From NCBI RefSeq assembly GCF_044324875.1, contig NZ_CP172185.1: 64,000 bases of DNA; one strand, 5' to 3'. The translations under genes were made by a program, and so were the position numbers. This DNA is from Escherichia coli. Its GTDB lineage: Bacteria; Pseudomonadota; Gammaproteobacteria; Enterobacterales; Enterobacteriaceae. Position 1 is the stretch's first letter. Each line of letters begins with the position of its first letter. Positions 14,508-64,000 of this stretch are shown in pieces. The notes under the pieces are model-generated. The model had not been told where the DNA came from. It saw nothing but the letters and a program-made list of their open reading frames with translations, and did no database searches.

Positions 14508-14583
<76 letters not shown>

Positions 14584-14618
14584 TTGGGTGGTCTGTGCTT
14601 TACAGCACTTTCAAATTT

Positions 14619-14694
<76 letters not shown>

Positions 14695-14851
14695 TTAATC
14701 TTCGTCTTTCGAACCGCTACTGCCTTGGCTGCCTTCACTCACCTTAGTCACTTACTTTTGTAAGCTCCCAAGGATTCGTTCAGTTGCCGCCTTGTCGCAA
14801 TTCGAAATACTGCGATTGGGTGGTCTGTGCTTTGCAGCACTTTTCAAATTT

Positions 14852-14927
<76 letters not shown>

Positions 14928-44081: not shown

Positions 44082-44157
44082 GCCCGGATAGCTCAGTCGG
44101 TAGAGCAGGGGATTGAAAATCCCCGTGTCCTTGGTTCGATTCCGAGTCCGGGCACCA
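44082..44157 (+). tRNA. pheU: tRNA-Phe (GAA)
   Basis: Exact 76-nt GCCCGGATAGCTCAGTCGGTAGAGCAGGGGATTGAAAATCCCCGTGTCCTTGGTTCGATTCCGAGTCCGGGCACCA. Confidence 0.97.
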
Positions 44158-44354: not shown

Positions 44355-45617
44355 ATGGCACTGACTGACGCAAAAATCCGGGCTGCAAAGCACACTGACA
44401 AGGCTTATAAACTCACTGACGGGGCTGGCATGTTCCTGCTGGTACATCCTAATGGTTCCCGTTACTGGCGTCTCCGTTATCGCATTCTGGGTAAGGAGAA
44501 AACTCTGGCACTTGGTGTATACCCGGAGGTTTCTCTCTCCGAAGCTCGTACAAAACGGGATGAGGCCCGAAAACTGATTTCGGAGGGGATTGACCCTTGC
44601 GAACAGAAAAGAGCTAAAAAAGTAGTCCCTGATTTACAACTCTCTTTTGAACATATTGCACGACGCTGGCATGCCAGTAATAAACAATGGGCACAATCAC
44701 ACAGCGATAAGGTACTCAAAAGCCTCGAAACACACGTTTTCCCCTTTATCGGCAACCGGAACATCACAACACTCAATACCCCGGACCTGCTTATCCCTGT
44801 TCGTGCTGCAGAAGCTAAACAAATTTATGAAATCGCCAGTCGTCTGCAGCAAAGAATATCTGCTGTAATGCGTTATGCCGTACAGTCTGGCATCATCAGA
44901 TATAATCCTGCTCTGGATATGGCTGGCGCATTGACCTCTGTAAAACGACAGCATCGCCCCGCTCTTGATCTTTCACGTCTGCCTGAACTTCTGTCGCGTA
45001 TTAACAGTTATAAAGGTCAGCCTGTCACCCGGCTTGCTGTTATGCTGAATTTACTGGTTTTTATTCGCTCCAGTGAACTCAGATATGCCCGCTGGGCTGA
45101 AATTGATATTGACAATTCAATGTGGACTATTCCAGCCGAACGCAAACCTCTGCCAGGGGTAAAATTCTCACACCGGGGCTCCAAGATGCGAACACCACAT
45201 CTTGTGCCACTCAGCAAACAGGCTGTAGCCATACTGACAGAACTTCAGACATGGGCTGGTGAAAATGGTCTGATCTTTACGGGAGCACATGACCCGCGTA
45301 AACCAATCAGTGAAAATACCGTAAATAAGGCCCTCAGAGTGATGGGGTATGACACAACCAAGGAAGTCTGTGGCCATGGATTCCGGGCGATGGCGTGCAG
45401 TGCATTGATTGAATCAGGTTTGTGGTCCCGCGATGCTGTGGAACGTCAGATGAGCCATCAGGAGCGTAATGGTGTACGTGCTGCGTATATCCATAAAGCA
45501 GAACATCTGGAAGAACGTCGACTGATGCTACAGTGGTGGGCAGATTTTCTGGATGCGAACAGAGATAAGGGTATCAGCCCGTTTGAATATGCAAAGATTA
45601 ACAATCCATTAAAATAG
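44355..45617 (+). CDS. P4-type tyrosine integrase
   Basis: 420-aa ORF; N-terminus MALTDAKIRAAKHTDKAYKLTDGAGMFLLVHPNGSRYWRLRYR (phage-integrase arm domain); C-terminus with HGFRAMACS and RAAYIH (R..H..R..Y catalytic signature); sits about 200 bp from the tRNA. Confidence 0.9.
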   Translation: MALTDAKIRAAKHTDKAYKLTDGAGMFLLVHPNGSRYWRLRYRILGKEKTLALGVYPEVSLSEARTKRDEARKLISEGIDPCEQKRAKKVVPDLQLSFEHIARRWHASNKQWAQSHSDKVLKSLETHVFPFIGNRNITTLNTPDLLIPVRAAEAKQIYEIASRLQQRISAVMRYAVQSGIIRYNPALDMAGALTSVKRQHRPALDLSRLPELLSRINSYKGQPVTRLAVMLNLLVFIRSSELRYARWAEIDIDNSMWTIPAERKPLPGVKFSHRGSKMRTPHLVPLSKQAVAILTELQTWAGENGLIFTGAHDPRKPISENTVNKALRVMGYDTTKEVCGHGFRAMACSALIESGLWSRDAVERQMSHQERNGVRAAYIHKAEHLEERRLMLQWWADFLDANRDKGISPFEYAKINNPLK

Positions 45618-45620
45618 TAA

Positions 45621-45650
45621 GCAGTCCGGGCTGATTGCCCGGACTGCTTT
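45621..45650 (+). terminator. Hairpin terminator after the integrase gene
   Basis: GCAGTCCGGG-CTGATTG-CCCGGACTGC stem-loop followed by TTTAACTGATTATTTTTC. Confidence 0.55.
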
Positions 45651-46068
45651 AACTGATTATTTTTCTTTGTAAATGATGACGAAGATTGATGTTCTGGCAA
45701 GTTACTCCGGCTTCCATTAAAGTCCCTTCGTCATGTTCTTCAGGCTATTTATGACTGTGATTAGCACCAGGAATATCTGGTTTCCATGAGAGCAGGTAAT
45801 AACCCCCGGTGTTTTCGGCTGTTCTGGTATCCTTGTCCAACGCAGGCAGTCATTATAAACGGTAAAAAATGTATTCACTGTTATGAAATCAATAGTCCTG
45901 ACGTACTGTTGAATGTGCTTGCGTTCTGAACCTTGTACAACCAGTACATTTGATACCGAATTATAAGCAAAACATTGCATCCAACTTTTTCAATATGGAC
46001 AATAGTTGTCCATATGGTGGTTTTATATTCGATAAATCAATGGATTTCATTGAGTCATAGGACTGGTA

Positions 46069-49000
46069 ATGGATGAAAATGCTTTAGGGTTTGCCTCATA
46101 CTGGCGCAACTCGCTTGCGGACGCTGAGTCAGGAAAGGGCAGTTTTGAACGGAAAGACGCCAAAAATTTCACTCACTGGCATGGGATAGCGGCGGGACGT
46201 CTTGACGAAGCGATTGTCAGTAAATTTTTTAAGGGAGAAAAAGACGATGTCGAAACGGTCGATGTCATCTTGCGCCCAAAAGTTTATTTCCGGTTACTGC
46301 AGCATGGTAAGGACCGTTCTGCAGGTGCGCCTGATATTGTTACCCCGATAGTGACGCCAGCCTTGCTAAGCCGTGAGGGTTTTTTATATCCGACGCCAGC
46401 GACCTCCATTCCCAGAGACCTGCTTGAACCTTTGCCAAAAGGAGCATTTTCGATTGGTGAGATTGGGCAGTATGACAAATACAAGACGACCCATACCACG
46501 TTCTCTATCAACTTTGATGACAGCGTTGATAAGACTGCCGAAACGGATGAAGAACGGGAAGAACGATATGCAGCCTTGCAGCAGGAGTGGCGTCAATATC
46601 TGGATGATTCAGAGAGGCTGCTGAAGAACGTTGCCGGCGACTGGATTAAAAATCCTGAGCAATATGAACTCGCTGAGCACGGTTATATTGTTAAAACGGC
46701 GCAATCTGGCGGTGCCAGTTTCCATATCCTTTCTCTTTATGATCACCTGCTTGTTTGCAATAAGGATGTGCCGCTCTTCAATCGATTCGCCTCGCGAGAG
46801 GTTCATGCTGCAGAGTCTTTGCTGGCCCCTGGAGCAAAATTCAGCGACAGGCTTGGACACTCCGGAGATAAGTTTCCGCTGGCAAAGGCTCAGCGCGATG
46901 CCTTAAGCCATTTTCTGGATGCTAAACATGGCGATATCCTTGCTGTTAATGGCCCTCCTGGAACCGGAAAAACCACGCTGGTGCTTTCTATCATCGCCAC
47001 GCAGTGGGCCAGAGCGGCTCTCGAAAAATCTGAGCCTCCGGTTATTATCGCGACTTCAACGAATAACCAGGCTGTAACGAACATTATTGAGGCATTCGGG
47101 AAAGACTTTTCGCAAGGTTCAGGTGCGATGGCCGGGCGATGGTTGCCAGAGCTGAAAAGCTTCGGCGCTTATTTTCCCTCAGGCAGCCGTAAAGCTGAAG
47201 CAGCCAAAAAATATCAAACTGAAGATTTCTTCAACCAGGTTGAGTCAAAAGAGTATGTAGAAGATGCACTGCTGTTTTATCTGGAAAAGGCTAAGGCAGC
47301 CTTTCCTGAAAAAGAGTGTTCATCCCCTGAAAAGGTCATTGAACTCCTGCATGGTCAGTTGGCAGCAAAATCCGAGCAACTGATAAGACTGAACGCAACA
47401 TGGCAAAAGTTAAGCCAGATTCGGGCTGCGCGTGAGCTTATTGCTAATGATATTGAGCAATATCTCAATAATTTAAATAAATTACTTTCCGGACAAGAAC
47501 AAAAAATCACTCTACTGAAGAGTGCTAAAACGGAATGGAAAAAATATCGCGCCGGTGAATCACTGATCTATTCATTATTTTCCTGGCTTCCGGCGGTTCG
47601 CAGTAAGCGACAGTACCAAATACAGCTGTTTCTCGAAGATAAATTAGGTGCGCTGATTGCAGGAAATCAATGGTCTGATCCTGAAACTATCGAACGTAAT
47701 ATTGATGGGCTGCTCAATTCCGCTGAGCGCGAGCAAACAACATACCGGCAGCAGATTGACTCCGCCCATGAAATCATTCTTAAAGAACAGCAGGCGGTTC
47801 AGGAGTGGCAGAGACTGGCTCTTGATTTAGGGTATGAGGGCGACGAGGAACTGAGCTTCTCACAGGCCGATGAACTGGCTGATACGCAGATTCGCTTCCC
47901 TGCATTTTTACTGACGACTCACTACTGGGAAGGTCGTTGGCTGATGGATATGGCCAGCATTGATGATCTGCAGGAAGAGAAGAAGAAAAAAGGCGCTAAA
48001 GGGGTAACCGCCCGTTGGCAACGTCGAATGAAACTCACTCCATGTGTGGTGATGACATGCTATATGCTGCCCGGCAATATGCAGATAAGTGAGCACAAAG
48101 GACAGCGTAAATTCGAGAAAAGTTATTTGTATGATTTTGCCGATTTACTCATTGTCGATGAAGCCGGGCAGGTGCTTCCTGAAGTGGCTGCTGCCTCGTT
48201 TGCATTAGCTAAGAAGGCATTAGTGATTGGCGATACGGAGCAGATCCCGCCAATATGGAGTATTGCTCCTGCGATTGATATCGGTAACATGCTGGCGGAA
48301 AAAATTCTGTCTGGCAGTACGCAAGAAGAGATTACCGAGAAATATACGGCAATCGCAGACCTTGGTAAAAGTGCCGCATCTGGCAGCGTTATGAAAATAG
48401 CGCAGTTTGCTTCGCGCTATCAATATGATCCCGAACTGGCTCGTGGTATGTACCTATATGAACACCGCCGGTGCTACGACAATATTATTGGATACTGTAA
48501 TACGCTCTGCTATCACGGTAAGTTGTTGCCTAAAAGAGGGCGTGAAGAGAGCAATTTAATGCCCGCAATGGGGTATCTCCATATTGATGGTAAAGGAGAG
48601 CTGGCAAGTAGTGGAAGTCGATATAATTTGCTTGAGGCTGAAACGATAGCGGTCTGGTTGGCAGAGAACCAGCAAAATATTGAAGCGCATTACGGTAAAT
48701 CGCTTCATGAAGTTGTCGGTATTGTGACGCCTTTTAGCGCTCAGGTATCCACTATCAAACAGGTGCTGGGCAAACAAGGTATCAGTACAGGCACGAATGA
48801 AAAGTCGCTCACAGTGGGCACCGTGCACTCTCTTCAGGGAGCGGAAAGAGCGATTGTGATATTCTCGCCAGTCTATTCAAAACATGAAGACGGCGGGTTT
48901 ATTGATAGCGATAACAGCATGCTGAATGTTGCAGTCTCCCGTGCGAAGGACAGTTTTCTGGTCTTCGGCGATATGGACCTGTTTGAGGTCCAGCCAGCCT

Positions 49001-49584
49001 CATCGCCACGGGGATTACTGGCAAAATACCTCTTTGAGTCAGAGAAGAATGCGCTCTCTTTTGATTATAAAGAGCGTAAGGATTTAAAAACCGCCGGGAC
49101 CAAAATCTACACACTTCATGGTGTGGAGCAACATGATAATTTCCTGAATCAGACATTTGAAAATACCAGTAAACACATCACGATAGTTTCTCCATGGCTG
49201 ACCTGGCAAAGGCTGGAGCAAACCGGTTTTCTTGATTCCATGATTGCGGCGTGTTCACGTGGAATTAACGTCACGATAGTCACTGACAGAAGCTACAACA
49301 CTGAACATAATGATTTTGAGAAGCGAAAAGAGAAGCAGCAGAACTTTAAAGCGGCGCTGGAGAAACTGAATGCGCTGGGTATTGCTACAAAGCTGGTAAA
49401 CCGTGTTCATAGCAAAATTGTTATTGGTGATGATGGTTTGCTGTGCGTGGGATCGTTCAACTGGTTTAGTGCGACACGGGAAGCGCGATATGAACGATAC
49501 GATACATCAATGGTTTATTGCGGTGATAACCTGAAGGGTGAGATTGAGGCTATTTATAATAGTCTTGAGAGGCGGCAGGTTTAG
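46069..49584 (+). CDS. Upf1-like SF1 helicase fused to a C-terminal PLD-family (single HKD) nuclease domain; candidate anti-phage defence protein with Mokosh type II-like architecture
   Basis: 1171-aa ORF. Walker [10 protein letters not shown] (aa 295-303, nt 46951-46977); Walker [10 protein letters not shown] (nt 48145-48171); helicase motifs [19 protein letters not shown] and [16 protein letters not shown] (nt 48814-48972); C-terminal HSKIVIGDD...GSFNW = H-x-K-x4-D...GSxN (nt 49408-49464). Located beside the island integrase. Confidence 0.8.
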
Positions 49585-49600
49585 AGCAGGAATGGTGAGT

Positions 49601-49637
49601 AGCCATCTTACCGATCGTTTTCGAGCGTAAGATGGCT
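49601..49637. other. 11-bp perfect inverted repeat between the convergent helicase-PLD and sulfatase-family genes
   Basis: AGCCATCTTAC ... GTAAGATGGCT with 15-nt loop; no adjacent T-run, so terminator function is uncertain. Confidence 0.35.
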
Positions 49638-49692
49638 GAATGGAATGGCTATTATTGCACAGTCCTTAATTATAACATTCATACCGACATGA

Positions 49693-51192
49693 TTATCTTC
49701 TGCCCGGAAGAATCAGAGGCTGTGGTTTCAGACTGTCTGCCGGTACATTCCTGTCTCCGTTAAAAACAATAACGGGTTCATTATCTTCGTCTGTCAGCGG
49801 ATTGAATGGCGGTATATTTTCAGTACGAATGCCGGTCAGCCACTGAAAAATACCTGCGAAATGACGGGCACTGATTTTTCTGCTGACGGACTGATGAGAC
49901 GTGATGTCACTGGCGGTAATAATCAGGGGAACGCTGTAGCCTCCTTGTATATGGCCATCATGATGAACAGGATTAGCACTGTCGCTGACCGACAGACCAT
50001 GGTCAGAAAAGTAAAGCATGGCAAAATGACGGGAGTGCCGGCGAAGGATACCATCAAGCTGACCGAGAAAGTTATCCAGTTTACTGATGCTGGCGAGGTA
50101 ACAGGCAATCTTTCGGGGATACTGCTCCAGGTAATGATTCGGCCAGGAGTTAAGTCGGTCACACGGATTCGGATGAGAGCCAATCATGTGCAGGAATATC
50201 ACCTTCGGAGAGGATTTATCCGCCAGTGCACGTTCTGTTTCCTGTAACAACAACATGTCATCCGTTTTACGGGAAGCAAAGCTGCCTTTCTTGAGGAAAA
50301 CGGTATGCTCCGCATCAGAAGCAATAACAGAGATGCGTGTATCATGCTCCCCCAGTTTTCCCTGATTGGATATCCACCATGTGCTGTATCCTGCTTTTGC
50401 TGCCAGCGCCACCACGTTGTTGCCGGAGTCAGGGTTCTGCTCATAGTCATAAATCAGTGTCCGGCTCAGGGAAGGTACGGTACTGGCTGCTGCCGATGTA
50501 TAGCCGTCAATAAATAAACCGGGAGCCGTATTCAGCCATGGTGTGGTTGGCACGGGATAGCCATATACCGACATATAATCCCTGCGCACACTCTCACCAG
50601 TAACGATAACAATCGTGTCATACAACGGTGTTCCCGGCAGGATTTTCCAGTTGTCAGCCCCGTGCTGACTCAGTTGTTTATAACGCTGCATTTCACGCAA
50701 TGTGTCAGTTGTTCCCACAACAATTCCTTTAACCATCCGCAACGGCCAGCTGTTTACAGAGCATAATACGAACAGCAGCAGTGCCAGCCAGTTACGGTGA
50801 CCGCGGTGGTGTGTCCGCCAGAAAATCACCATGAATACCAGAATCGCGGCACTGACCAGAAAATGATAAACAGGAATCATCCCGGTAAACTCTGCAGCCT
50901 CATCAGCCGTGGTCTGCAGCAACGCGACAATAAAACTGTTGTTGATTTTACCGTACGTCATACCCGCAGGCGCATACAGTGCACAACAGAACAGAAATAA
51001 CAGCGTTGTAATGGATGTGAGGGTATTTCTGTGTGCAAGGAGCAGAAGGAGAAACAGAAGCAGCACATTTCCTGTGGCATTCTTCTCAGTGTATCCGCAT
51101 GCAATTGTGGTTATCACAGAAATAACAAAAAAGAATAAAAACAATAAAATCCGGGGTGTGTCGCCCGGACAAAACAGTTTTCTGATATTCAT
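49693..51192 (-). CDS. Sulfatase-family inner-membrane protein (phosphoethanolamine-transferase-like)
   Basis: 499-aa ORF; N-terminal ~130 aa strongly hydrophobic (multiple TM helices), C-terminal domain with VTGESVRRDY and HMIGSHPNP motifs resembling EptA/OpgE/LtaS-type transferases. Confidence 0.7.
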   Translation of the reverse strand: MNIRKLFCPGDTPRILLFLFFFVISVITTIACGYTEKNATGNVLLLFLLLLLAHRNTLTSITTLLFLFCCALYAPAGMTYGKINNSFIVALLQTTADEAAEFTGMIPVYHFLVSAAILVFMVIFWRTHHRGHRNWLALLLFVLCSVNSWPLRMVKGIVVGTTDTLREMQRYKQLSQHGADNWKILPGTPLYDTIVIVTGESVRRDYMSVYGYPVPTTPWLNTAPGLFIDGYTSAAASTVPSLSRTLIYDYEQNPDSGNNVVALAAKAGYSTWWISNQGKLGEHDTRISVIASDAEHTVFLKKGSFASRKTDDMLLLQETERALADKSSPKVIFLHMIGSHPNPCDRLNSWPNHYLEQYPRKIACYLASISKLDNFLGQLDGILRRHSRHFAMLYFSDHGLSVSDSANPVHHDGHIQGGYSVPLIITASDITSHQSVSRKISARHFAGIFQWLTGIRTENIPPFNPLTDEDNEPVIVFNGDRNVPADSLKPQPLILPGRR

Positions 51193-51373
51193 CGGAGTAT
51201 ATCGACAACATTATTATGAAGAGAACAGGATAATAAAAATCAGAAATTATCTGTAAAACAGATAACAGACAACCCTGCAGCAATAGACTGCAGGGTGTTT
51301 CTGTTTAATTGCAGAAGATATACAATTATATTAATTACAGAATATTCGTGATTATCTCTCGGGAACAGTGTTG

Positions 51374-52114
51374 TCAGAAGTTATAAGTCACACCAAGCAT
51401 GATGTCATGACTTTTAACATCAACTTCTGACTTATATTTATCGCCCCACTCGTCCTTGTAACTCACACTGCTGTCACCTGCATCAAGATAGCGATAGCTG
51501 AGGTCCAGAGCGATATCCGGGGTTACGTCATAGCGGACACCCGCGCCAAGGTTCCATGCGAAGTTGTCAGCAGAGCCTGAACGTGACAACGATTCGCGAC
51601 CACTGCTTCCGTACTCATAATCCCAGGTACTGATACCGGTTGTTTTCTGGTGAATTCTGGCGTAGCCAATCCCTGCAGATATCCAAGGTGTGAATGCGCT
51701 GTCATTCCGGAAGTCATAGTACGCATTCAGCATTAGTGTGTTGACTGACACCTCATTCTTCAGGTCATCACGCCAGTAACCACCTGACCAACTGTCTTTA
51801 TCTACGTTATACTTCGAATCAGCTTTTCCACGAGCGTAAAACTCCAGTTCTGTACGAACCGGAATACTGAACTGCGGATAAAAATCATAACCAGCCGCGA
51901 TACCACCACTGAATACCGTATCATGGTCATCGCCGCCTTTATACTTTGACGTTTCTTCCTCATCTCCTGACAGGAAACGCTGGTCTGAAAGTGACACCAC
52001 AGAGGTACCGGCTTTACCGGTCAGATAAAAACCGCTTTTACCTTCCTCAGCACCTGCATTTGCTGCAAATACACAGGCTGCGGCCACCACTGAAACAGCA
52101 AAAACCTTTTTCAT
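51374..52114 (-). CDS. Outer-membrane beta-barrel protein (Opa/Ail/OmpA-like)
   Basis: 246-aa ORF with signal peptide MKKVFAVSVVAAACVFAANAGA, alternating amphipathic strands rich in Y/G/D, and C-terminal ...GVTYNF (terminal Phe typical of OM beta-barrels). Confidence 0.7.
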   Translation of the reverse strand: MKKVFAVSVVAAACVFAANAGAEEGKSGFYLTGKAGTSVVSLSDQRFLSGDEEETSKYKGGDDHDTVFSGGIAAGYDFYPQFSIPVRTELEFYARGKADSKYNVDKDSWSGGYWRDDLKNEVSVNTLMLNAYYDFRNDSAFTPWISAGIGYARIHQKTTGISTWDYEYGSSGRESLSRSGSADNFAWNLGAGVRYDVTPDIALDLSYRYLDAGDSSVSYKDEWGDKYKSEVDVKSHDIMLGVTYNF

Positions 52115-59681: not shown

Positions 59682-59752
59682 TACTTATTTGGTGGACACC
59701 ACTTTGTCTAATTCGTCAGATTCTGACCAGACGGTTCAGGCTGTACGCTTAC

Positions 59753-61833
59753 GCCTGACCGGTGTCTCTGGTGACATATTCCGGAGCTCCGGAGAGAGTA
59801 AAGGTAACGCGATCATCGGCAGAAGCATCTCCATACTGCAGATGCCCGTCGTTGGGGATCATGGCCAGTTTGCCGTAATAGCGATACACATTGTATTCAT
59901 CCTGTGTATAGCCAAAGAAGGACTGATTATTCAGTTGTGAACCCGACAGGCTGACAAACTCGCTGGCAAGAAGATGACTTCCCGTATTATCCAGTTTGTT
60001 CGCGTCAATCAGCAGATTATTACCGGCCGAAATTCTGGCATCCCCCCCTGTTGCACCAACATCGACGCGTGTTGTGCCAGTCAGAAATTTCCGGGTGGCT
60101 CCCTTTTCAGTCGGAACGGCCCATGCCTCAAAACCACCACCGGCAGTACCGCTCCAGGACTTCACATAATATCCCCATCCATTTTCACCTAAATCGCCCA
60201 CTCTGACTGAAACAGAATTTACACCATCAGGTACTGCGACATTCTCAACCGGAATGTATGATTTTGTCTCATTTATACCCTCCCGCTGATTCAGTAAATG
60301 TCCGGTTCTGATGGTGATATCACCGCGGGTGGTTTCGATATTCCCGGAGGTATTAATCACTTCAGCATTCGCGGCACCACTGACATCTTTCTGCATCACC
60401 AGGCTGTAACCCGCCAGCATATCGCCGTGATGGTTCCGGATGGTGCTGGCAAACAGCGAGAGGTTATTGCCCGCATACAACAGTGCGGTGTTAATGACTG
60501 CCCCGGCGACCGTTAACACCAGACTACCCGTCGTGCCGGTAAAACCGTCGAGAGTGATATCTCCCCTGCTGGTCAGGCTGACGTCCCCGCCTGCCTGCAG
60601 GCTGCCGCTGGCATTCATCGCAATCCCGCTGCCGCTCAGTGCCGTGGTGCCGTTGCCGGCGGTCAACTGGCCATTGTTGGTCAGCCTGCCTGCAGCATTC
60701 AGCGTGATACCGTTGCCCTGCAATGTGGCGCCATTGGTAATATCACCCTGGCTGCTGACGGAGAGTTGTTTATTCGCGGCGATAACGCCCTGTGCGGTCA
60801 AACCACGTGTGAGCTTCAGCGTCAGGTTACCGAGTGCAACCAGCTGGCCCGCGCCGCTGAGCGAGACCATTTCAGCAAGCATATCACCGCCGCTGAACAC
60901 CTTCCCGCCGGCGTTGTTCAGGCTGTTCCCTTTTATTGTCAGGCCCTGATTACCCAGCAGCGTGCCGCTGTTGGTGATGGTCTGCGTGTTGACGTTCAGT
61001 TGTGCAGCCTGGAACAGGCCACGGTTGGTCAGACTGTTACCTGTGAGCGTTGCCTGATTCGCCGCCATCACAGTGCCATTACCGGCAAGCTTCGCCACGT
61101 TCAGCAGCAGGTCAGTGGCCTGTAGCCAGCCACTGCCACTGTAGTCCGGCGTGGTGAACGTCAGCTCACCGCCGGAAAGAATCTTGCCACTGTTGTGGGC
61201 CTGCGTTGCCGCGCTGAGCGTGGTTTTACCGTTGCCCTGAATGGTGCCGTCATTAGTCAGCACAGGTGCAGAAAGCGCTGATACGTTCTGACTGAGAAGC
61301 ACACCGCTGGTCTGGTTGGTCAGGGCATTCAGCAATGTAAGAGTCAGCCCGCTGTCGCCCTGCACACGACCTGAGTTGGTCAGCGAACTGGCGGTGATTC
61401 GGTTATCCGCCCCCTGAAGCTGCCCACTATTGCTGATGTCTCTGGCGTTGACGTTTAATGTACCGCCTGTCAGCATTTTACCGTGCTGTTGCAGATTACC
61501 ACTGAGTGTCACATTCAGGCTGTTAACACCACTGATTTCGCCACCGTTGCTGAGCGAATCACCATTCACTTCCAGCGTCTTCGCGCTGATTAATCCCTTG
61601 TTACCCAGCACTTTCCCGGTAAGGCGGGCATCGCCCAGGGCGGTAATTTTGCTGCCGGTGGCAGCAATAACATCGCCACTCAGGGTCAGAGCCAACTCCA
61701 GCGCACTCTGAACAGCACCGCTGCTGGTCAGGCTGCTGGCATCCAGAGTAATGTTCTGCCCCTGAATCCGGCCGCTGTTGGTCACATCTCCTGCGCTCAG
61801 CGTCAGCGAGTTCTGGCTCGATCCGCGCACCAC
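59753..61833 (-). pseudogene. Internal fragment of a filamentous-haemagglutinin / CdiA-like two-partner-secretion exoprotein
   Basis: 694-aa minus-strand ORF made of degenerate repeats (...LTNSGRVQG..., ...LNNAGGKVFSGGDM..., ...GNSLTNRGLFQAAQLNVN...); no TPS secretion domain; reading frame terminates inside the IS66 terminal repeat. Confidence 0.7.
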
Positions 61834-61872
61834 TTATCCCGAACTGCGTCAGCAGTTGATCGGAGGTACACC

Positions 61873-62424
61873 ATGAAACGCATTCTGACCCGTGGCCTGG
61901 CGCTGCTGATGCTGATGCTCGCCGGCTGCAGCATCGAGGTCACCGAGTACCGGCAGCAGCAGCCCGCCCTCGACATCTTCCACTATTTTCAGGGTCGAAC
62001 CGAGGCGTGGGGGATGGTGCAGGATCGCCGCGGTAAACAGCTGCGCCGCTTCCATGTAGCGATCGATGGCGACGTCGTCGGCGACACCCTGACGCTCCAT
62101 GAGCGCTTTGTCTATGACGATGGCGAGAAACAGCAGCGGGTGTGGCGCATTCGCCGCACCGGCGATAACCATTATCAGGGCACCGCCGGGGATATCGAAG
62201 GCGTGGCCAGCGGCCAGGCGGCAGGCAATGCCTTTCACTGGCGCTACAGCATGAACGTCGAGGCCAGCGGCAGCCGGTGGCTGCTGCACTTTGACGACTG
62301 GATGTTCCTGCAGGACGGCAGCCATTTGTTTAACAAAACCGAGATGAAGAAATTCGGCATTACGGTGGCCACCGTGACCCTTTTCTTTACCCGAACCACA
62401 GCAGAAGAGAGGACAGCGCCATGA
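61873..62424 (+). CDS. Putative lipoprotein
   Basis: 183-aa ORF with signal peptide and lipobox MKRILTRGLALLMLMLAGCS; stop overlaps the next gene's start (ATGA); high-GC codon usage. Confidence 0.65.
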   Translation: MKRILTRGLALLMLMLAGCSIEVTEYRQQQPALDIFHYFQGRTEAWGMVQDRRGKQLRRFHVAIDGDVVGDTLTLHERFVYDDGEKQQRVWRIRRTGDNHYQGTAGDIEGVASGQAAGNAFHWRYSMNVEASGSRWLLHFDDWMFLQDGSHLFNKTEMKKFGITVATVTLFFTRTTAEERTAP

Positions 62425-63380
62425 ACACGCAACCTGTCATTGGGATCAGCGGATGTTTAACCGGCTCAGCCGTGCGATTCGACGGCGGGCATAAGCGTAT
62501 GGGCTTTGTGATGGATGAGCTCGCGCAGTGGGTGGCGTTTAAGCCCGTCTGCCCGGAGATGGCGATCGGCCTGCCCGTTCCCCGCCCGGCGCTCCGGCTG
62601 GTGCAGACCCCGGTCGGGGAGATCCGCATGCGCTTCAGCCACGCCCCGCACGAGGATGTGACGGAGAAGATGGCCGATTTCGCCAACGCCCATCTGGCAA
62701 CCCTGGGCGAGCTGTCGGGCTTTATCGTCTGCGCCAAATCGCCGATCTGCGGGATGGAGCGCGTGCGGCTGTATGATGAAAAAGGCAATCGCGGGCGTAA
62801 GGAAGGCGTGGGGCTGTTTACCGGCGCCCTGATGGCGCGCTACCCGTGGCTTCCGGTGGAAGAGGATGGCCGGCTGCACGATCCGCTGCTGCGGGAGAAT
62901 TTTGTCGAGCGCGTCTTCGCCCTGCATGAACTCAACGCCCTGCGCGCCCGCGGCCTGACCCGCCACGGCCTGCTGGCCTTTCACAGCCGCTACAAGCTGC
63001 AGCTGCTGGCTCACCACCAGGCGGGCTACCGCGAGATCGGCCCCTTCGTCGCCTCGCTGCATGAATGGGAGGATCTGGAGGCTTTCTTCGAGGTCTATCG
63101 CGAAAAGCTGATGGCGATCCTCAAGCGGCCCGCCTCTCGGAAAAACCACACCAACGTGCTGATGCATATTCAGGGTTATTTCCGCGACCAGCTGAACAGC
63201 CGCCAGCGCGGCGAGCTGCGGGAGGTGATCCTCAACTATCGCGCCGGGCTGCTGCCGATCCTCGCGCCGCTGACGCTGCTTAAGCACTATCTGGCCGAGT
63301 ATCCGGATCGCTACCTGCAGGCGCAGAACTATTTTGACCCCTACCCGCAGGATCTTGCCCTGCGCCTGACGGTGAACTGA
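62421..63380 (+). CDS. YbgA-like protein (DUF523 plus DUF1722-type)
   Basis: 319-aa ORF MNTQPVIGISGCLTGSAVRFDGGHKRMGFVMDELAQWVAFKPVCPEMAIGLP...; high GC and Leu/Arg/Ala-rich composition. Confidence 0.6.
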   Translation: MNTQPVIGISGCLTGSAVRFDGGHKRMGFVMDELAQWVAFKPVCPEMAIGLPVPRPALRLVQTPVGEIRMRFSHAPHEDVTEKMADFANAHLATLGELSGFIVCAKSPICGMERVRLYDEKGNRGRKEGVGLFTGALMARYPWLPVEEDGRLHDPLLRENFVERVFALHELNALRARGLTRHGLLAFHSRYKLQLLAHHQAGYREIGPFVASLHEWEDLEAFFEVYREKLMAILKRPASRKNHTNVLMHIQGYFRDQLNSRQRGELREVILNYRAGLLPILAPLTLLKHYLAEYPDRYLQAQNYFDPYPQDLALRLTVN

Positions 63381-63395
63381 GGGAACCTGGGCCAG

Positions 63396-63616
63396 CTGCC
63401 CGGCGGCGCTGCGCTTGCGCGGGCCTGGGAGGGGATCCCGCAGGCCTCCTCAGGAACGTAGGCCGGATAAGGCATTTATGCCGCCATCCGGCACAACCAC
63501 AGGTATGGAGCTTGAAGTGTCCTGCCCGGCGGCGCTGCGCCTGCCGGGCCTGGGGGGTATCCCGCAGGCCTCCTCAGAAACGTAGGCCGGATAAGGCATG
63601 TATGCCGCCATCCGGC
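63396..63616. repeat. Two tandem ~97-bp REP/BIME-type palindromic repeat units
   Basis: Units 63396-63492 and 63522-63616, about 90% identical, each containing TAGGCCGGATAAGGCAT(T/G)TATGCCGCCATCCGGCA. Confidence 0.8.
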
Positions 63617-63692
63617 ATAAATGGAGCGCACCAGTCGTAGCCCGGCTAAGCGTAGCGCCAGCCGGGAACGCTCCTTCGACAACGCTATCGCA

Positions 63693-64000
63693 TCAGAACC
63701 ACGCCTCAAACATCCCGCCGACGTTCAGCGAATCCAGCTGCTGGTCTTTGGTGCCGTTGACCTTAGCGGTATGCTCGTTGTCCACCTGACCGCCGGTCAC
63801 GTAGAAGCGCAGCATCGGACGGAACTCCGGCCCCATGCCGATGGCGATGTTCTGCGACAGCGTCAGCTTCCAGCCGTGGTTATCCCCGCCCTGGTCGTAG
63901 TCCACGCGCTGGTAGCCCGCTTCCAGCCAGGTGGAGTGCACGTCGTTCCAGAAGTACATCGGCCGCACGATGGCACCGTAGTTTTTGCGGTTGTCGGTAT
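63693..64000 (-). CDS. LamB-family sugar porin, C-terminal part (gene runs off the window end)
   Basis: Minus-strand ORF ending ...DSLNVGGMFEAWF*, resembling maltoporin-type C-termini; frame open to the window edge. Confidence 0.55.
   Translation of the reverse strand, partial: TDNRKNYGAIVRPMYFWNDVHSTWLEAGYQRVDYDQGGDNHGWKLTLSQNIAIGMGPEFRPMLRFYVTGGQVDNEHTAKVNGTKDQQLDSLNVGGMFEAWF

Follow-up and report, generated by a model that had tools for sequence, protein, structure and literature searches.

A probable single-gene Mokosh type II defence cassette, mkoC, in the integrase-proximal slot of an Escherichia coli pheU genomic island

Three Mokosh systems have been shown to defend Escherichia coli against phages, and mutation of either the ATP-binding site or the PLD active site abolishes this defence (Millman et al. 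2022). Mokosh type I is a two-gene system, MkoA and MkoB, in which the helicase protein MkoA also carries a serine/threonine kinase domain. In type II, the helicase and the PLD nuclease share one polypeptide, with neither a kinase domain nor a separate PLD gene. The construct SG150, listed as ‘Mokosh type II’ and marked ‘v’ (validated) in supplementary file 11 of the original preprint, derives from E. coli 5-366-08_S1_C1, encodes a MkoC protein of 1171 aa and carries the native upstream sequence (Millman et al. 2022). The same authors favoured RNA or RNA/DNA intermediates as the target of Mokosh (Millman et al. 2022), and Cury et al. linked the system to MOV10L1 and PLD6, using the E. coli yjhR gene as the ‘fused Mokosh’ of their structural comparison. 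Co-localisation with type IV restriction has also been published.

Among the papers searched, none is devoted to the mechanism of Mokosh II, and the available biochemistry comes from a nuclease-NTPase preprint. There, EcMokosh II, with a mass of about 132-138 kDa, is monomeric and, in vitro and in the absence of ATP, cleaves ssDNA (M13, SECphi17) and nicks plasmid DNA, while linear dsDNA is left uncut (2025 preprint). Cleavage requires the PLD site, the NTPase site being dispensable, and in one panel of 11 phages defence was directed only against the ssDNA phage SECphi17 (2025 preprint). The substrates of these assays were DNA, supplied without ATP and without RNA, and the account is inconsistent on dose, the text describing a ‘robust’ effect at all concentrations and the legend only at 1 uM (2025 preprint). 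The truncations in that study use an A995/L996 domain boundary (2025 preprint).

The window considered here, a 64,000-nucleotide stretch of an E. coli chromosome, contains an uninterrupted open reading frame with an ATG start that is very probably mkoC, a single-gene Mokosh type II system occupying, as a self-contained 3.7-kb cassette, the integrase-proximal slot of a pheU genomic island. The gene and the parts of its product are as follows.

46069-49584, plus strand: mkoC, encoding the probable single-gene Mokosh type II defence protein, 1171 aa, 131.5 kDa (open reading frame, PADLOC MkoC)
46069-46872, plus strand: N-terminal domain, aa 1-268, family-specific
46873-49053, plus strand: Upf1-like SF1B helicase core, aa 269-995, comprising RecA1, a long helical insertion and RecA2 (Pfam, Foldseek)
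46951-46977, plus strand: Walker A (motif I), GPPGTGKTT, aa 295-303, including K301
47248-48033, plus strand: helical insertion within RecA1, aa 394-655, five long helices (DSSP of the model)
48157-48168, plus strand: Walker B (motif II), DEAG, aa 697-700, nearly invariant
49054-49581, plus strand: C-terminal single-HKD PLD nuclease domain, aa 996-1171
49408-49431, plus strand: HxK(x4)D catalytic motif, HSKIVIGD, aa 1114-1121, the sole such motif in the protein

The protein scores 1694 bits (E=0) against the PADLOC profile PDLC03924 (MkoC), its residues 1-1169 aligning with positions 1-1135 of the 1136 in the profile. This match is far above chance; the runner-up profile, MkoA, reaches 123 bits over part of the protein. 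A first-pass annotation, made from the letters alone, had read the gene as a Mokosh type II-like fusion of helicase and PLD nuclease, and had named PADLOC and profile searches as ways to check that reading. Membership is now settled by the MkoC profile, by the fold searches and by 97.2% identity to an allele matching the validated construct, and the gene is almost certainly a member of Mokosh II. Among Pfam families, AAA_11 matches residues 272-492 and 679-729, AAA_12 matches 777-969 (E 2e-21), PLDc_2 matches 1028-1138 (E 1e-9) and the PLDc active-site motif matches 1110-1133, so that both the helicase and the PLD models proposed for the search were recovered. SF1 motifs I, II, V and VI are all present. 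Each motif of the SF1B core that had been quoted, including two further stretches at residues 918-933 and 953-968, sits at the residues given for it, and the expected single-HKD C-terminus is borne out by one HxK(x4)D motif, with HSKIVIGDD at 1114-1122 (H1114) and GSFNW at 1128-1132. The residues for ATP binding and for the HKD site are thus intact (K301, D697/E698, H1114, K1116 and D1121).

Relative to Mokosh type I, MkoA profiles match residues 692-994 (E 1e-32 to 1e-36) and the MkoB profile matches the PLD domain at 1011-1138 (E 8e-17), whereas the two components are here joined in one polypeptide with a different N-terminal domain. A kinase family is absent from the Pfam matches of the protein and no separate PLD gene was found by PADLOC among the neighbours tested; the two-gene arrangement with a Ser/Thr kinase on the helicase protein, which defines type I, does not describe this locus. 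Another relative in architecture is SauUSI, which likewise combines a PLD nuclease and a helicase in one chain. In SauUSI, the nuclease is N-terminal, the motor belongs to SF2 and a reader domain recognises modified cytosine, the enzyme cutting modified dsDNA. The domain order is reversed in MkoC and its motor is SF1B, which rules out a SauUSI-like type IV restriction enzyme; only the PLD domain matches SauUSI, and no sequence relationship was seen outside it.

The AlphaFold model of MkoC (pLDDT 92.5) is composed of three parts, namely the N-terminal domain, the SF1B helicase core and the PLD domain. In Foldseek searches with the full-length model, Senataxin (8ftm, E 3e-16) and Upf1 (2xzo, E 1e-15) were recovered, with further matches of the core to IGHMBP2, Aquarius, Sen1, Dna2, nsp13 and ZNFX1, and the nearest solved folds include the Senataxin-ssRNA, Upf1-RNA and IGHMBP2-RNA complexes. 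At E values of 1e-15 to 1e-16, the helicase region has the two-RecA fold of Upf1-like SF1B enzymes, together with accessory insertions of the Upf1 type. A sequence search of the PDB found no solved Mokosh structure, the nearest entries being Upf1 and Senataxin (E about 1e-7). The helicase fold and motifs are common to MkoC and the Upf1-like SF1B helicases (Upf1, Senataxin/Sen1, IGHMBP2, Aquarius, Dna2, MOV10L1), at 11-14% identity to Upf1, Senataxin and IGHMBP2 and up to 20% to Dna2 and nsp13, but MkoC has its own N-terminal domain and a helical insertion of about 260 residues within RecA1. It also differs from Dna2 in its nuclease, which is of the PLD fold rather than a PD-(D/E)XK domain.

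Because helicase matches swamped the full-length fold search, the flanking domains were exposed to it through a modelled deletion construct (aa 1-268 joined to 996-1171), in which the interdomain orientation has no meaning and was disregarded. The PLD domain adopts a Nuc/Zucchini-like fold in this search, with the HxK(x4)D motif placed within it, as the first-pass annotation had anticipated for structure prediction of the C-terminus. With the PLD domain alone, a sequence search of the PDB gave weak matches (NucT E 0.02, Nuc E 1.2). The top matches of the domain, to a ‘Bagel’ designed protein, were discarded as spurious, being repeated matches to one 21-residue stretch. Nuc, NucT and Zucchini (PLD6) are small, free-standing homodimers, whereas the PLD domain of MkoC is the C-terminus of a 131-kDa and reportedly monomeric protein. 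For the N-terminal domain, the fold search of the model returned no relative among solved structures, and a PHROGs search with this domain and the helical insertion gave no matches; as modelled, the N-terminal quarter of MkoC is a conserved fold-orphan, and a sensor or regulatory role is proposed for it.

In an alignment of 63 homologues at 30-51% identity, P296, P297, T299, G300 and D1121 are invariant, and K301, DEAG, H1114 and K1116 are nearly so. Residues 401-600 are poorly conserved, and the helical insertion is the most variable part of the family. This alignment was built from a 50%-representative search, a first homologue search having given only enterobacterial relatives that are at least 89% identical.

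EcMokosh II is probably the same type of protein as the MkoC of the window, given the agreement in mass and in the A995/L996 boundary. A mechanism may be proposed in which the helicase would load on single-stranded nucleic acid exposed in phage replication or transcription and translocate 5'->3' with ATP, and in which this translocation would license or position the PLD domain to cut the bound strand. In Nuc, Zucchini and BfiI, one active site is built from two HKD motifs. Since MkoC is a monomer with a single HKD motif, activation would probably require two molecules meeting on the substrate, such that a PLD domain inactive in the monomer would be switched on by substrate-induced dimerisation. 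Such activation, drawn purely from other PLD nucleases, is put forward tentatively, at somewhat below even chances.

As to what is cut, ssDNA is slightly preferred over RNA as the physiological target. It is also conceivable, at lower probability, that the same gene and family act on phage RNA or RNA:DNA hybrids (transcripts or R-loops), where the Upf1-like helicase would track along RNA and the PLD domain would cut it, in the manner of MOV10L1/Armitage and Zucchini in piRNA biogenesis. The nearest solved folds are indeed RNA or RNA/DNA helicases (Senataxin, Upf1, IGHMBP2, Sen1, Aquarius, ZNFX1), the tie to MOV10L1 and PLD6 drawn by Cury et al. points the same way, and the in-vitro substrate panel that favours DNA was made up of DNA only (2025 preprint). 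The sole biochemistry nonetheless consists of PLD-dependent ssDNA cleavage and plasmid nicking, protection within the phage panel was confined to an ssDNA phage (2025 preprint), and the presence of Dna2 and nsp13 among the fold matches indicates that the helicase fold is not RNA-specific.

The surroundings of mkoC are those of a tRNA-borne genomic island, with the features below.

44082-44157, plus strand: tRNA-Phe (pheU), insertion site of the island, downstream of cutA-dsbD-dicD (ARAGORN, Rfam, synteny)
44355-45617, plus strand: P4-type tyrosine integrase of the island (NCBIfam PRK09692 integrase domain, RefSeq)
45619-45649, plus strand: strong hairpin just 3' of the integrase stop, 13-bp stem (-28.6 kcal/mol, z -8.2)
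45643-49688, plus strand: variable slot between integrase and ept, occupied by mkoC
45924-46068, plus strand: upstream region, 145 nt, conserved and travelling with mkoC (homology between two contexts starts at 45924; three-allele alignment)
49693-51192, minus strand: phosphoethanolamine transferase (ept), 499 aa, a membrane enzyme gene convergent with mkoC

The gene accordingly stands alone between the integrase and a convergent membrane-protein gene, and its integrase-proximal position on a tRNA island, noted at first pass, is substantiated by the tRNA-Phe gene and by the variable slot seen in other genomes. The neighbouring open reading frames also include an OmpW/Adr-like outer membrane protein (NCBIfam/RefSeq) and PhoX, the latter by RefSeq name only. 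In Rfam searches of 43000-64000, only tRNA was found. No direct or inverted repeat of at least 12 nt of the tRNA-Phe 3' end, as a candidate attR, occurs within the window, and in strain 26561 the pheU island extends about 50 kb to cadC; the end of the island therefore lies beyond the window.

The hairpin behind the integrase is predicted to insulate mkoC from integrase transcription. The 145-nt upstream region, presumed to be the promoter/operator, holds a perfect palindrome, ATATGGACAATAGTTGTCCATAT, at 45993-46015 and an upstream hairpin of -11.2 kcal/mol (z -3.2), and the candidate terminator after the mkoC stop codon is weak (z -0.9). A promoter scan of 45618-46068 found no consensus sigma-70 site.

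The SG150 sequence is printed in the supplement as its first 399 nt and 399 aa, and E. coli PCN033 carries an allele identical to both. From these printed parts we infer that the PCN033 allele corresponds to the full-length SG150 sequence. Between the protein of the window and that of PCN033 there are 33 substitutions in 1171 positions and zero indels, and length, domain order and catalytic residues are the same; the substitutions are conservative to moderate, are somewhat more frequent in the N-terminal and PLD domains and spare Walker A and B, motifs V and VI and the HKD motif. The genomic context of the two alleles also differs, and homology between them extends over 45924-49647 only. A self-contained cassette of 3.7 kb, shared between unrelated flanks, fits a single-gene system, as the first-pass annotation had supposed. 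PADLOC, run on the integrase and the larger open reading frames out to 63380, matched no defence model, and therefore neither a multi-gene system nor a local ‘defence island’ is present in the window. The ept and omp genes were considered as system parts and rejected: about 3000 genomes have them, most of these lacking mkoC, and neither gene lies beside the validated-type allele.

The allele of the window is, on this comparison, likely to be competent for defence. That mkoC is here by descent, but with an allele or locus that is silent, either unexpressed or inactivated by substitutions, is improbable. Such a reading could draw on the 33 substitutions, on the outcome of the promoter scan and on the existence of decayed copies, but the 3.5-kb frame is unbroken, no catalytic or family-invariant residue has been lost, and the validated construct shares the conserved 145-nt upstream region. 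The gene is moreover found at 100% identity in many genomes and at 99% nucleotide identity or more in 79.

Decay is documented elsewhere in the family, by an IS1 insertion in AR_0118, by a deletion remnant in ERP001 and by the yjhR fragment of K-12. The last of these, a pseudogene of the KpLE2 element, is what remains of the C-terminal part (about residues 759-1171) of a helicase-PLD fusion of the Mokosh II type; at 66-69% amino-acid and 70% nucleotide identity to mkoC, it is truncated, frameshifted and non-functional, and represents a different lineage of the Mokosh II family.

Across complete E. coli genomes, mkoC is present in 888 of 5426 (about 16%), with all matches chromosomal and none on a plasmid. 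It usually fills the variable slot that separates a P4-type integrase gene from that of a phosphoethanolamine transferase in pheU or leuX (tRNA-Leu) islands, and the integrase-mkoC-ept arrangement of the window recurs in about 715 genomes. The validated-type allele is found in about 142 genomes, at the distal end of a CP4-like element; in PCN033, with no integrase nearby, its neighbours are a restriction endonuclease gene, a TIR pseudogene and genes of type I RM, a setting typical of defence genes. Since mkoC is missing from many integrase-ept-omp islands that are identical in other respects, the island does not depend on it. In one such strain, GTEN_97, the integrase is followed by about 300 nt and then ept-omp, and this leuX island also carries dptFGH. 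A non-defence helicase-nuclease function for the island or the host, for instance in repair of DNA, in conjugation or in excision or replication of the island, might be suggested by the adjoining integrase, by SF1B helicase-nuclease fusions such as Dna2 that act in replication and repair, and by the want of a functional name in RefSeq, but it is scarcely credible for a near-identical protein listed as experimentally validated against phages, whose cassette lies elsewhere among RM and TIR genes, is dispensable to the island and has zero plasmid matches.

As a member of the already described Mokosh type II, the gene is ordinary and common, and its trigger, the choice between ssDNA and RNA and the activation of a monomer are questions of the Mokosh II family rather than discoveries of this window. 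Relatives of about 970-1000 aa stop exactly where the PLD domain would begin, and some of these PLD-less proteins adjoin candidate effectors, among them a GGDEF protein, an ART-PolyVal ADP-ribosyltransferase and ABC-3C-type components. It is a speculative and rather unlikely combination that the N-domain and motor form a modular phage sensor-motor, that the PLD domain is dimerisation-activated and that effectors are swapped across the family; if true, Mokosh II would be one branch of an effector-swapping family not described as such. For annotation, the value of the locus is more immediate, as one of the commonest defence genes of E. coli goes unnamed, because RefSeq calls the protein only an ‘AAA domain-containing protein’ and NCBIfam gives only partial, sub-cutoff matches to other helicase families (PLuB, IGHMBP2, ProA, Hhe, RecD). 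To the description of Mokosh II, the locus contributes usable cassette limits, an integrase-proximal slot at both pheU and leuX islands, a high-confidence full-length model and, within that model, an N-terminal quarter that stands as a conserved fold-orphan.

Mokosh is a defence system defined by Millman et al. (bioRxiv 10.1101/2022.05.11.491447), and the gene under study, mkoC, encodes its single-gene type II form. The first-pass annotation, which read an Upf1-like helicase fused to a phospholipase D (PLD) nuclease from the sequence, gave the coordinates and length of the open reading frame correctly, and its description of the surroundings (a tRNA, an integrase and a convergent membrane-protein gene) also holds at this locus:

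44082-44157, tRNA-Phe gene (pheU)
44355-45617, tyrosine integrase gene
46069-49584, plus strand, mkoC, ATG start, 1171 codons and a stop (ORF listing and translation)
49693-51192, phosphoethanolamine-transferase gene (ept), convergent with mkoC; an OmpW/Adr-like outer-membrane protein gene (omp) lies next

All motifs that it quoted were located at the residues named, and the domain boundaries below come from an AlphaFold2 model built on an alignment of 63 relatives (mean pLDDT 92.5, pTM 0.87):

Residues 1-268, mixed alpha/beta N-terminal domain (model)
Residues 295-303, Walker A, with K301
Residues 394-655, insertion of long helices, about 260 residues, within RecA1; RecA2 follows RecA1 and this insertion (model)
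Residues 697-700, Walker B, DEAG
Residues 918-933 and 953-968, two further helicase motifs
Residues 1012-1169, beta-alpha PLD domain (model)
Residues 1114-1122, HSKIVIGDD, with H1114
Residues 1128-1132, GSFNW

The HxK(x4)D motif occurs once in MkoC. Pfam profiles bear out the proposed architecture, with AAA_11 at residues 272-492 and 679-729 and AAA_12 at 777-969 (E 2e-21) forming the core, and PLDc_2 at 1028-1138 (E 1e-9) together with the PLDc active-site motif at the C-terminus. Fold searches of the model against the PDB with Foldseek returned Senataxin (3e-16) and Upf1 (1e-15), followed by IGHMBP2, Aquarius, Sen1, Dna2, nsp13 and ZNFX1; the Upf1-like SF1B assignment of the helicase is thus confirmed at the level of the predicted fold. 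Because helicase matches swamped the full-length list, a deletion construct joining residues 1-268 to 996-1171 was also modelled (pLDDT 86.8). A search of representatives clustered at 50% identity gave 12979 relatives with E<=1e-3, of which 1141 reached E<=1e-30; many relatives are full length, with identities of 31-52%. In the alignment of 63 relatives, K301, D697/E698, Q923, R927, R958, H1114, K1116 and D1121 are invariant or nearly so, the N-terminal region carries conserved motifs of its own, RLGH among them, and the helical insertion is the least conserved part of the protein.

Membership in Mokosh type II, which the first-pass annotation had proposed and left open, is established by sequence comparison. 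The PADLOC MkoC profile matches residues 1-1169 across profile positions 1-1135/1136 (E=0, 1694 bits), and those for type I, MkoA and MkoB, cover just the helicase C-terminal half and just the PLD domain, respectively. Three Mokosh systems were shown to defend E. coli, defence being abolished by mutations in the ATP-binding or PLD active site; the construct SG150, from E. coli 5-366-08_S1_C1 with an MkoC of 1171 aa, is listed as "Mokosh type II" and marked validated (Millman et al., bioRxiv 10.1101/2022.05.11.491447, supplementary table). The allele of E. coli PCN033 (WP_000344089.1) agrees at 100% with both the 399 nt printed for SG150 and the 399 aa printed for its MkoC. The window MkoC differs from this allele at 33 of 1171 residues (97.2% identity), with no indels and with the catalytic motifs unchanged; with the UTI89 allele it shares 98.4% identity. 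Its mass (131.5 kDa) and A995/L996 junction match those of EcMokosh II (bioRxiv 10.1101/2025.07.10.664194). The original observation is confirmed and its interpretation supported.

Synteny places the window on the E. coli chromosome (groEL ... cutA-dsbD-dicD-tRNA-Phe, i.e. pheU). From 45050, inside the integrase, to 52134, the window is 96% identical to the leuX (tRNA-Leu) island of UTI89, where the integrase 3' end, mkoC, ept and omp form the same module; the 5' two-thirds of the integrase lack a match there. On this 3'-third-only homology the integrase is mosaic, and the module is one exchanged between pheU and leuX islands. In PCN033 a CP4-like element carries mkoC at its far end, beside genes for an HNH endonuclease, a restriction endonuclease and a type I RM system and a TIR pseudogene, and the stretch shared with the window is limited to 45924-49647, i.e. 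from 145 nt 5' to 63 nt 3' of the gene. These limits show mkoC to be a self-contained cassette. The leuX island of GTEN_97 carries an integrase, about 300 nt, ept-omp without mkoC, and then dptFGH; taken with PCN033 and UTI89, this marks 45643-49688 as an integrase-proximal variable slot. In 715 genomes the integrase is joined to mkoC as here, and in 665 mkoC is joined to ept; 142 have upstream sequence of the PCN033 type, and the ept segment by itself matches about 3000 E. coli genomes.

The integrase stop codon is followed by a strong hairpin (-28.6 kcal/mol, z -8.2), and a perfect palindrome with 10-bp arms, ATATGGACAATAGTTGTCCATAT (45993-46015; -11.2 kcal/mol, z -3.2), lies 54 nt 5' of the mkoC ATG. 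The palindrome is kept in the UTI89 and SG150-type alleles with one or two arm positions differing, and may act as an operator or as a hairpin in RNA; a consensus sigma-70 promoter sought near it was not found. None of the neighbouring ORFs tested matched a PADLOC defence model. Together with the cassette limits and the slot, these features support the suggested reading of mkoC as island cargo that acts as a single-gene system. Membership of the ept-omp pair (49693-52114) in this defence system was rejected, since it adjoins P4-type integrases with or without mkoC. The ept product is CptA/EptA-like, with weak MCR similarity far below cutoffs, and that of omp is Adr/OmpW-like; the K-12 counterpart of ept is presumably the pseudogene yjgX.

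Elsewhere in the window, three ordinary tandem tRNA-Gly(GCC) genes (14508-14927, minus strand) are taken to be glyV-glyX-glyY of the E. coli core genome. Collinearity with strain 26561 is lost at 59752, immediately past an IS66 element. In the remaining 4.3 kb (59752-64000; 57-63% GC) lie genes for a 694-aa protein of beta-strand repeats, a member of the YbgA family, a DUF3833 protein and a carbohydrate porin; pieces of this stretch occur in thousands of genomes, the whole of it in only 5 complete ones.

Of 5426 complete E. coli genomes, 888 carry mkoC, 839 of them at full length; every copy is chromosomal, and RefSeq names the product just "AAA domain-containing protein". Decayed copies include one split by IS1 in strain AR_0118 (NZ_CP020048.1 3437001-3441293) and a 500-nt 5' remnant left by deletion at the leuX slot of strain ERP001 (locus L007, 5001-5501). 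The K-12 pseudogene yjhR (locus L008, 8941-10181, K-12-type strain) corresponds to residues ~759-1171 and is what is left of the C-terminus of a paralogue from a second Mokosh II lineage, with only 66-69% identity to the window MkoC; a restriction-endonuclease fragment adjoins it.

The in-vivo target may be ssDNA or may be RNA or R-loops; the latter was the original hypothesis, and the resemblances to Upf1, Senataxin and Zucchini favour it. On a panel of DNA substrates EcMokosh II, essentially the same protein as the window MkoC and a monomer of about 132-138 kDa, cleaved ssDNA (M13, SECphi17) and nicked plasmid in a buffer lacking ATP, leaving linear dsDNA uncut. Only nuclease-site mutation blocked M13 cleavage, and in an 11-phage panel only the ssDNA phage SECphi17 was protected against. 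The effective dose is given inconsistently (robust from 10 nM to 1 uM in the text, only 1 uM in the figure legends) (bioRxiv 10.1101/2025.07.10.664194). The SF1B motor would load onto single-stranded nucleic acid exposed in infection and translocate with ATP, positioning or licensing the PLD domain for cutting. In Nuc-type enzymes two HKD motifs together make up one active site, whereas MkoC is a monomer with a single HKD; activation therefore probably requires two molecules meeting on the substrate, for which SauUSI is a useful analogue.

Homologues of about 970-1000 aa stop at the equivalent of residue ~996, without the PLD domain. Five of their contexts, all outside the window, were inspected, two being short, uninformative contigs. 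The others (metagenomic contigs L009 3851-7973, L010 1612-7982 and L014 920-6226) comprise one in which a GGDEF gene precedes the homologue by 8 nt in the same orientation, another with genes for an ART-PolyVal ADP-ribosyltransferase and for an 899-aa product of no assigned function upstream, and a third with a CTD1-domain gene downstream, followed by MComp1 and AAA_15/SMC_N-type genes, which we take to be ABC-3C-type components. These differing neighbours hint that effectors may be swapped around a common N-domain (sensor) and helicase module, in a small sample of five contexts. The window gene itself is an already known and very common E. coli defence gene; any novelty left belongs to the Mokosh II family, not to this locus.
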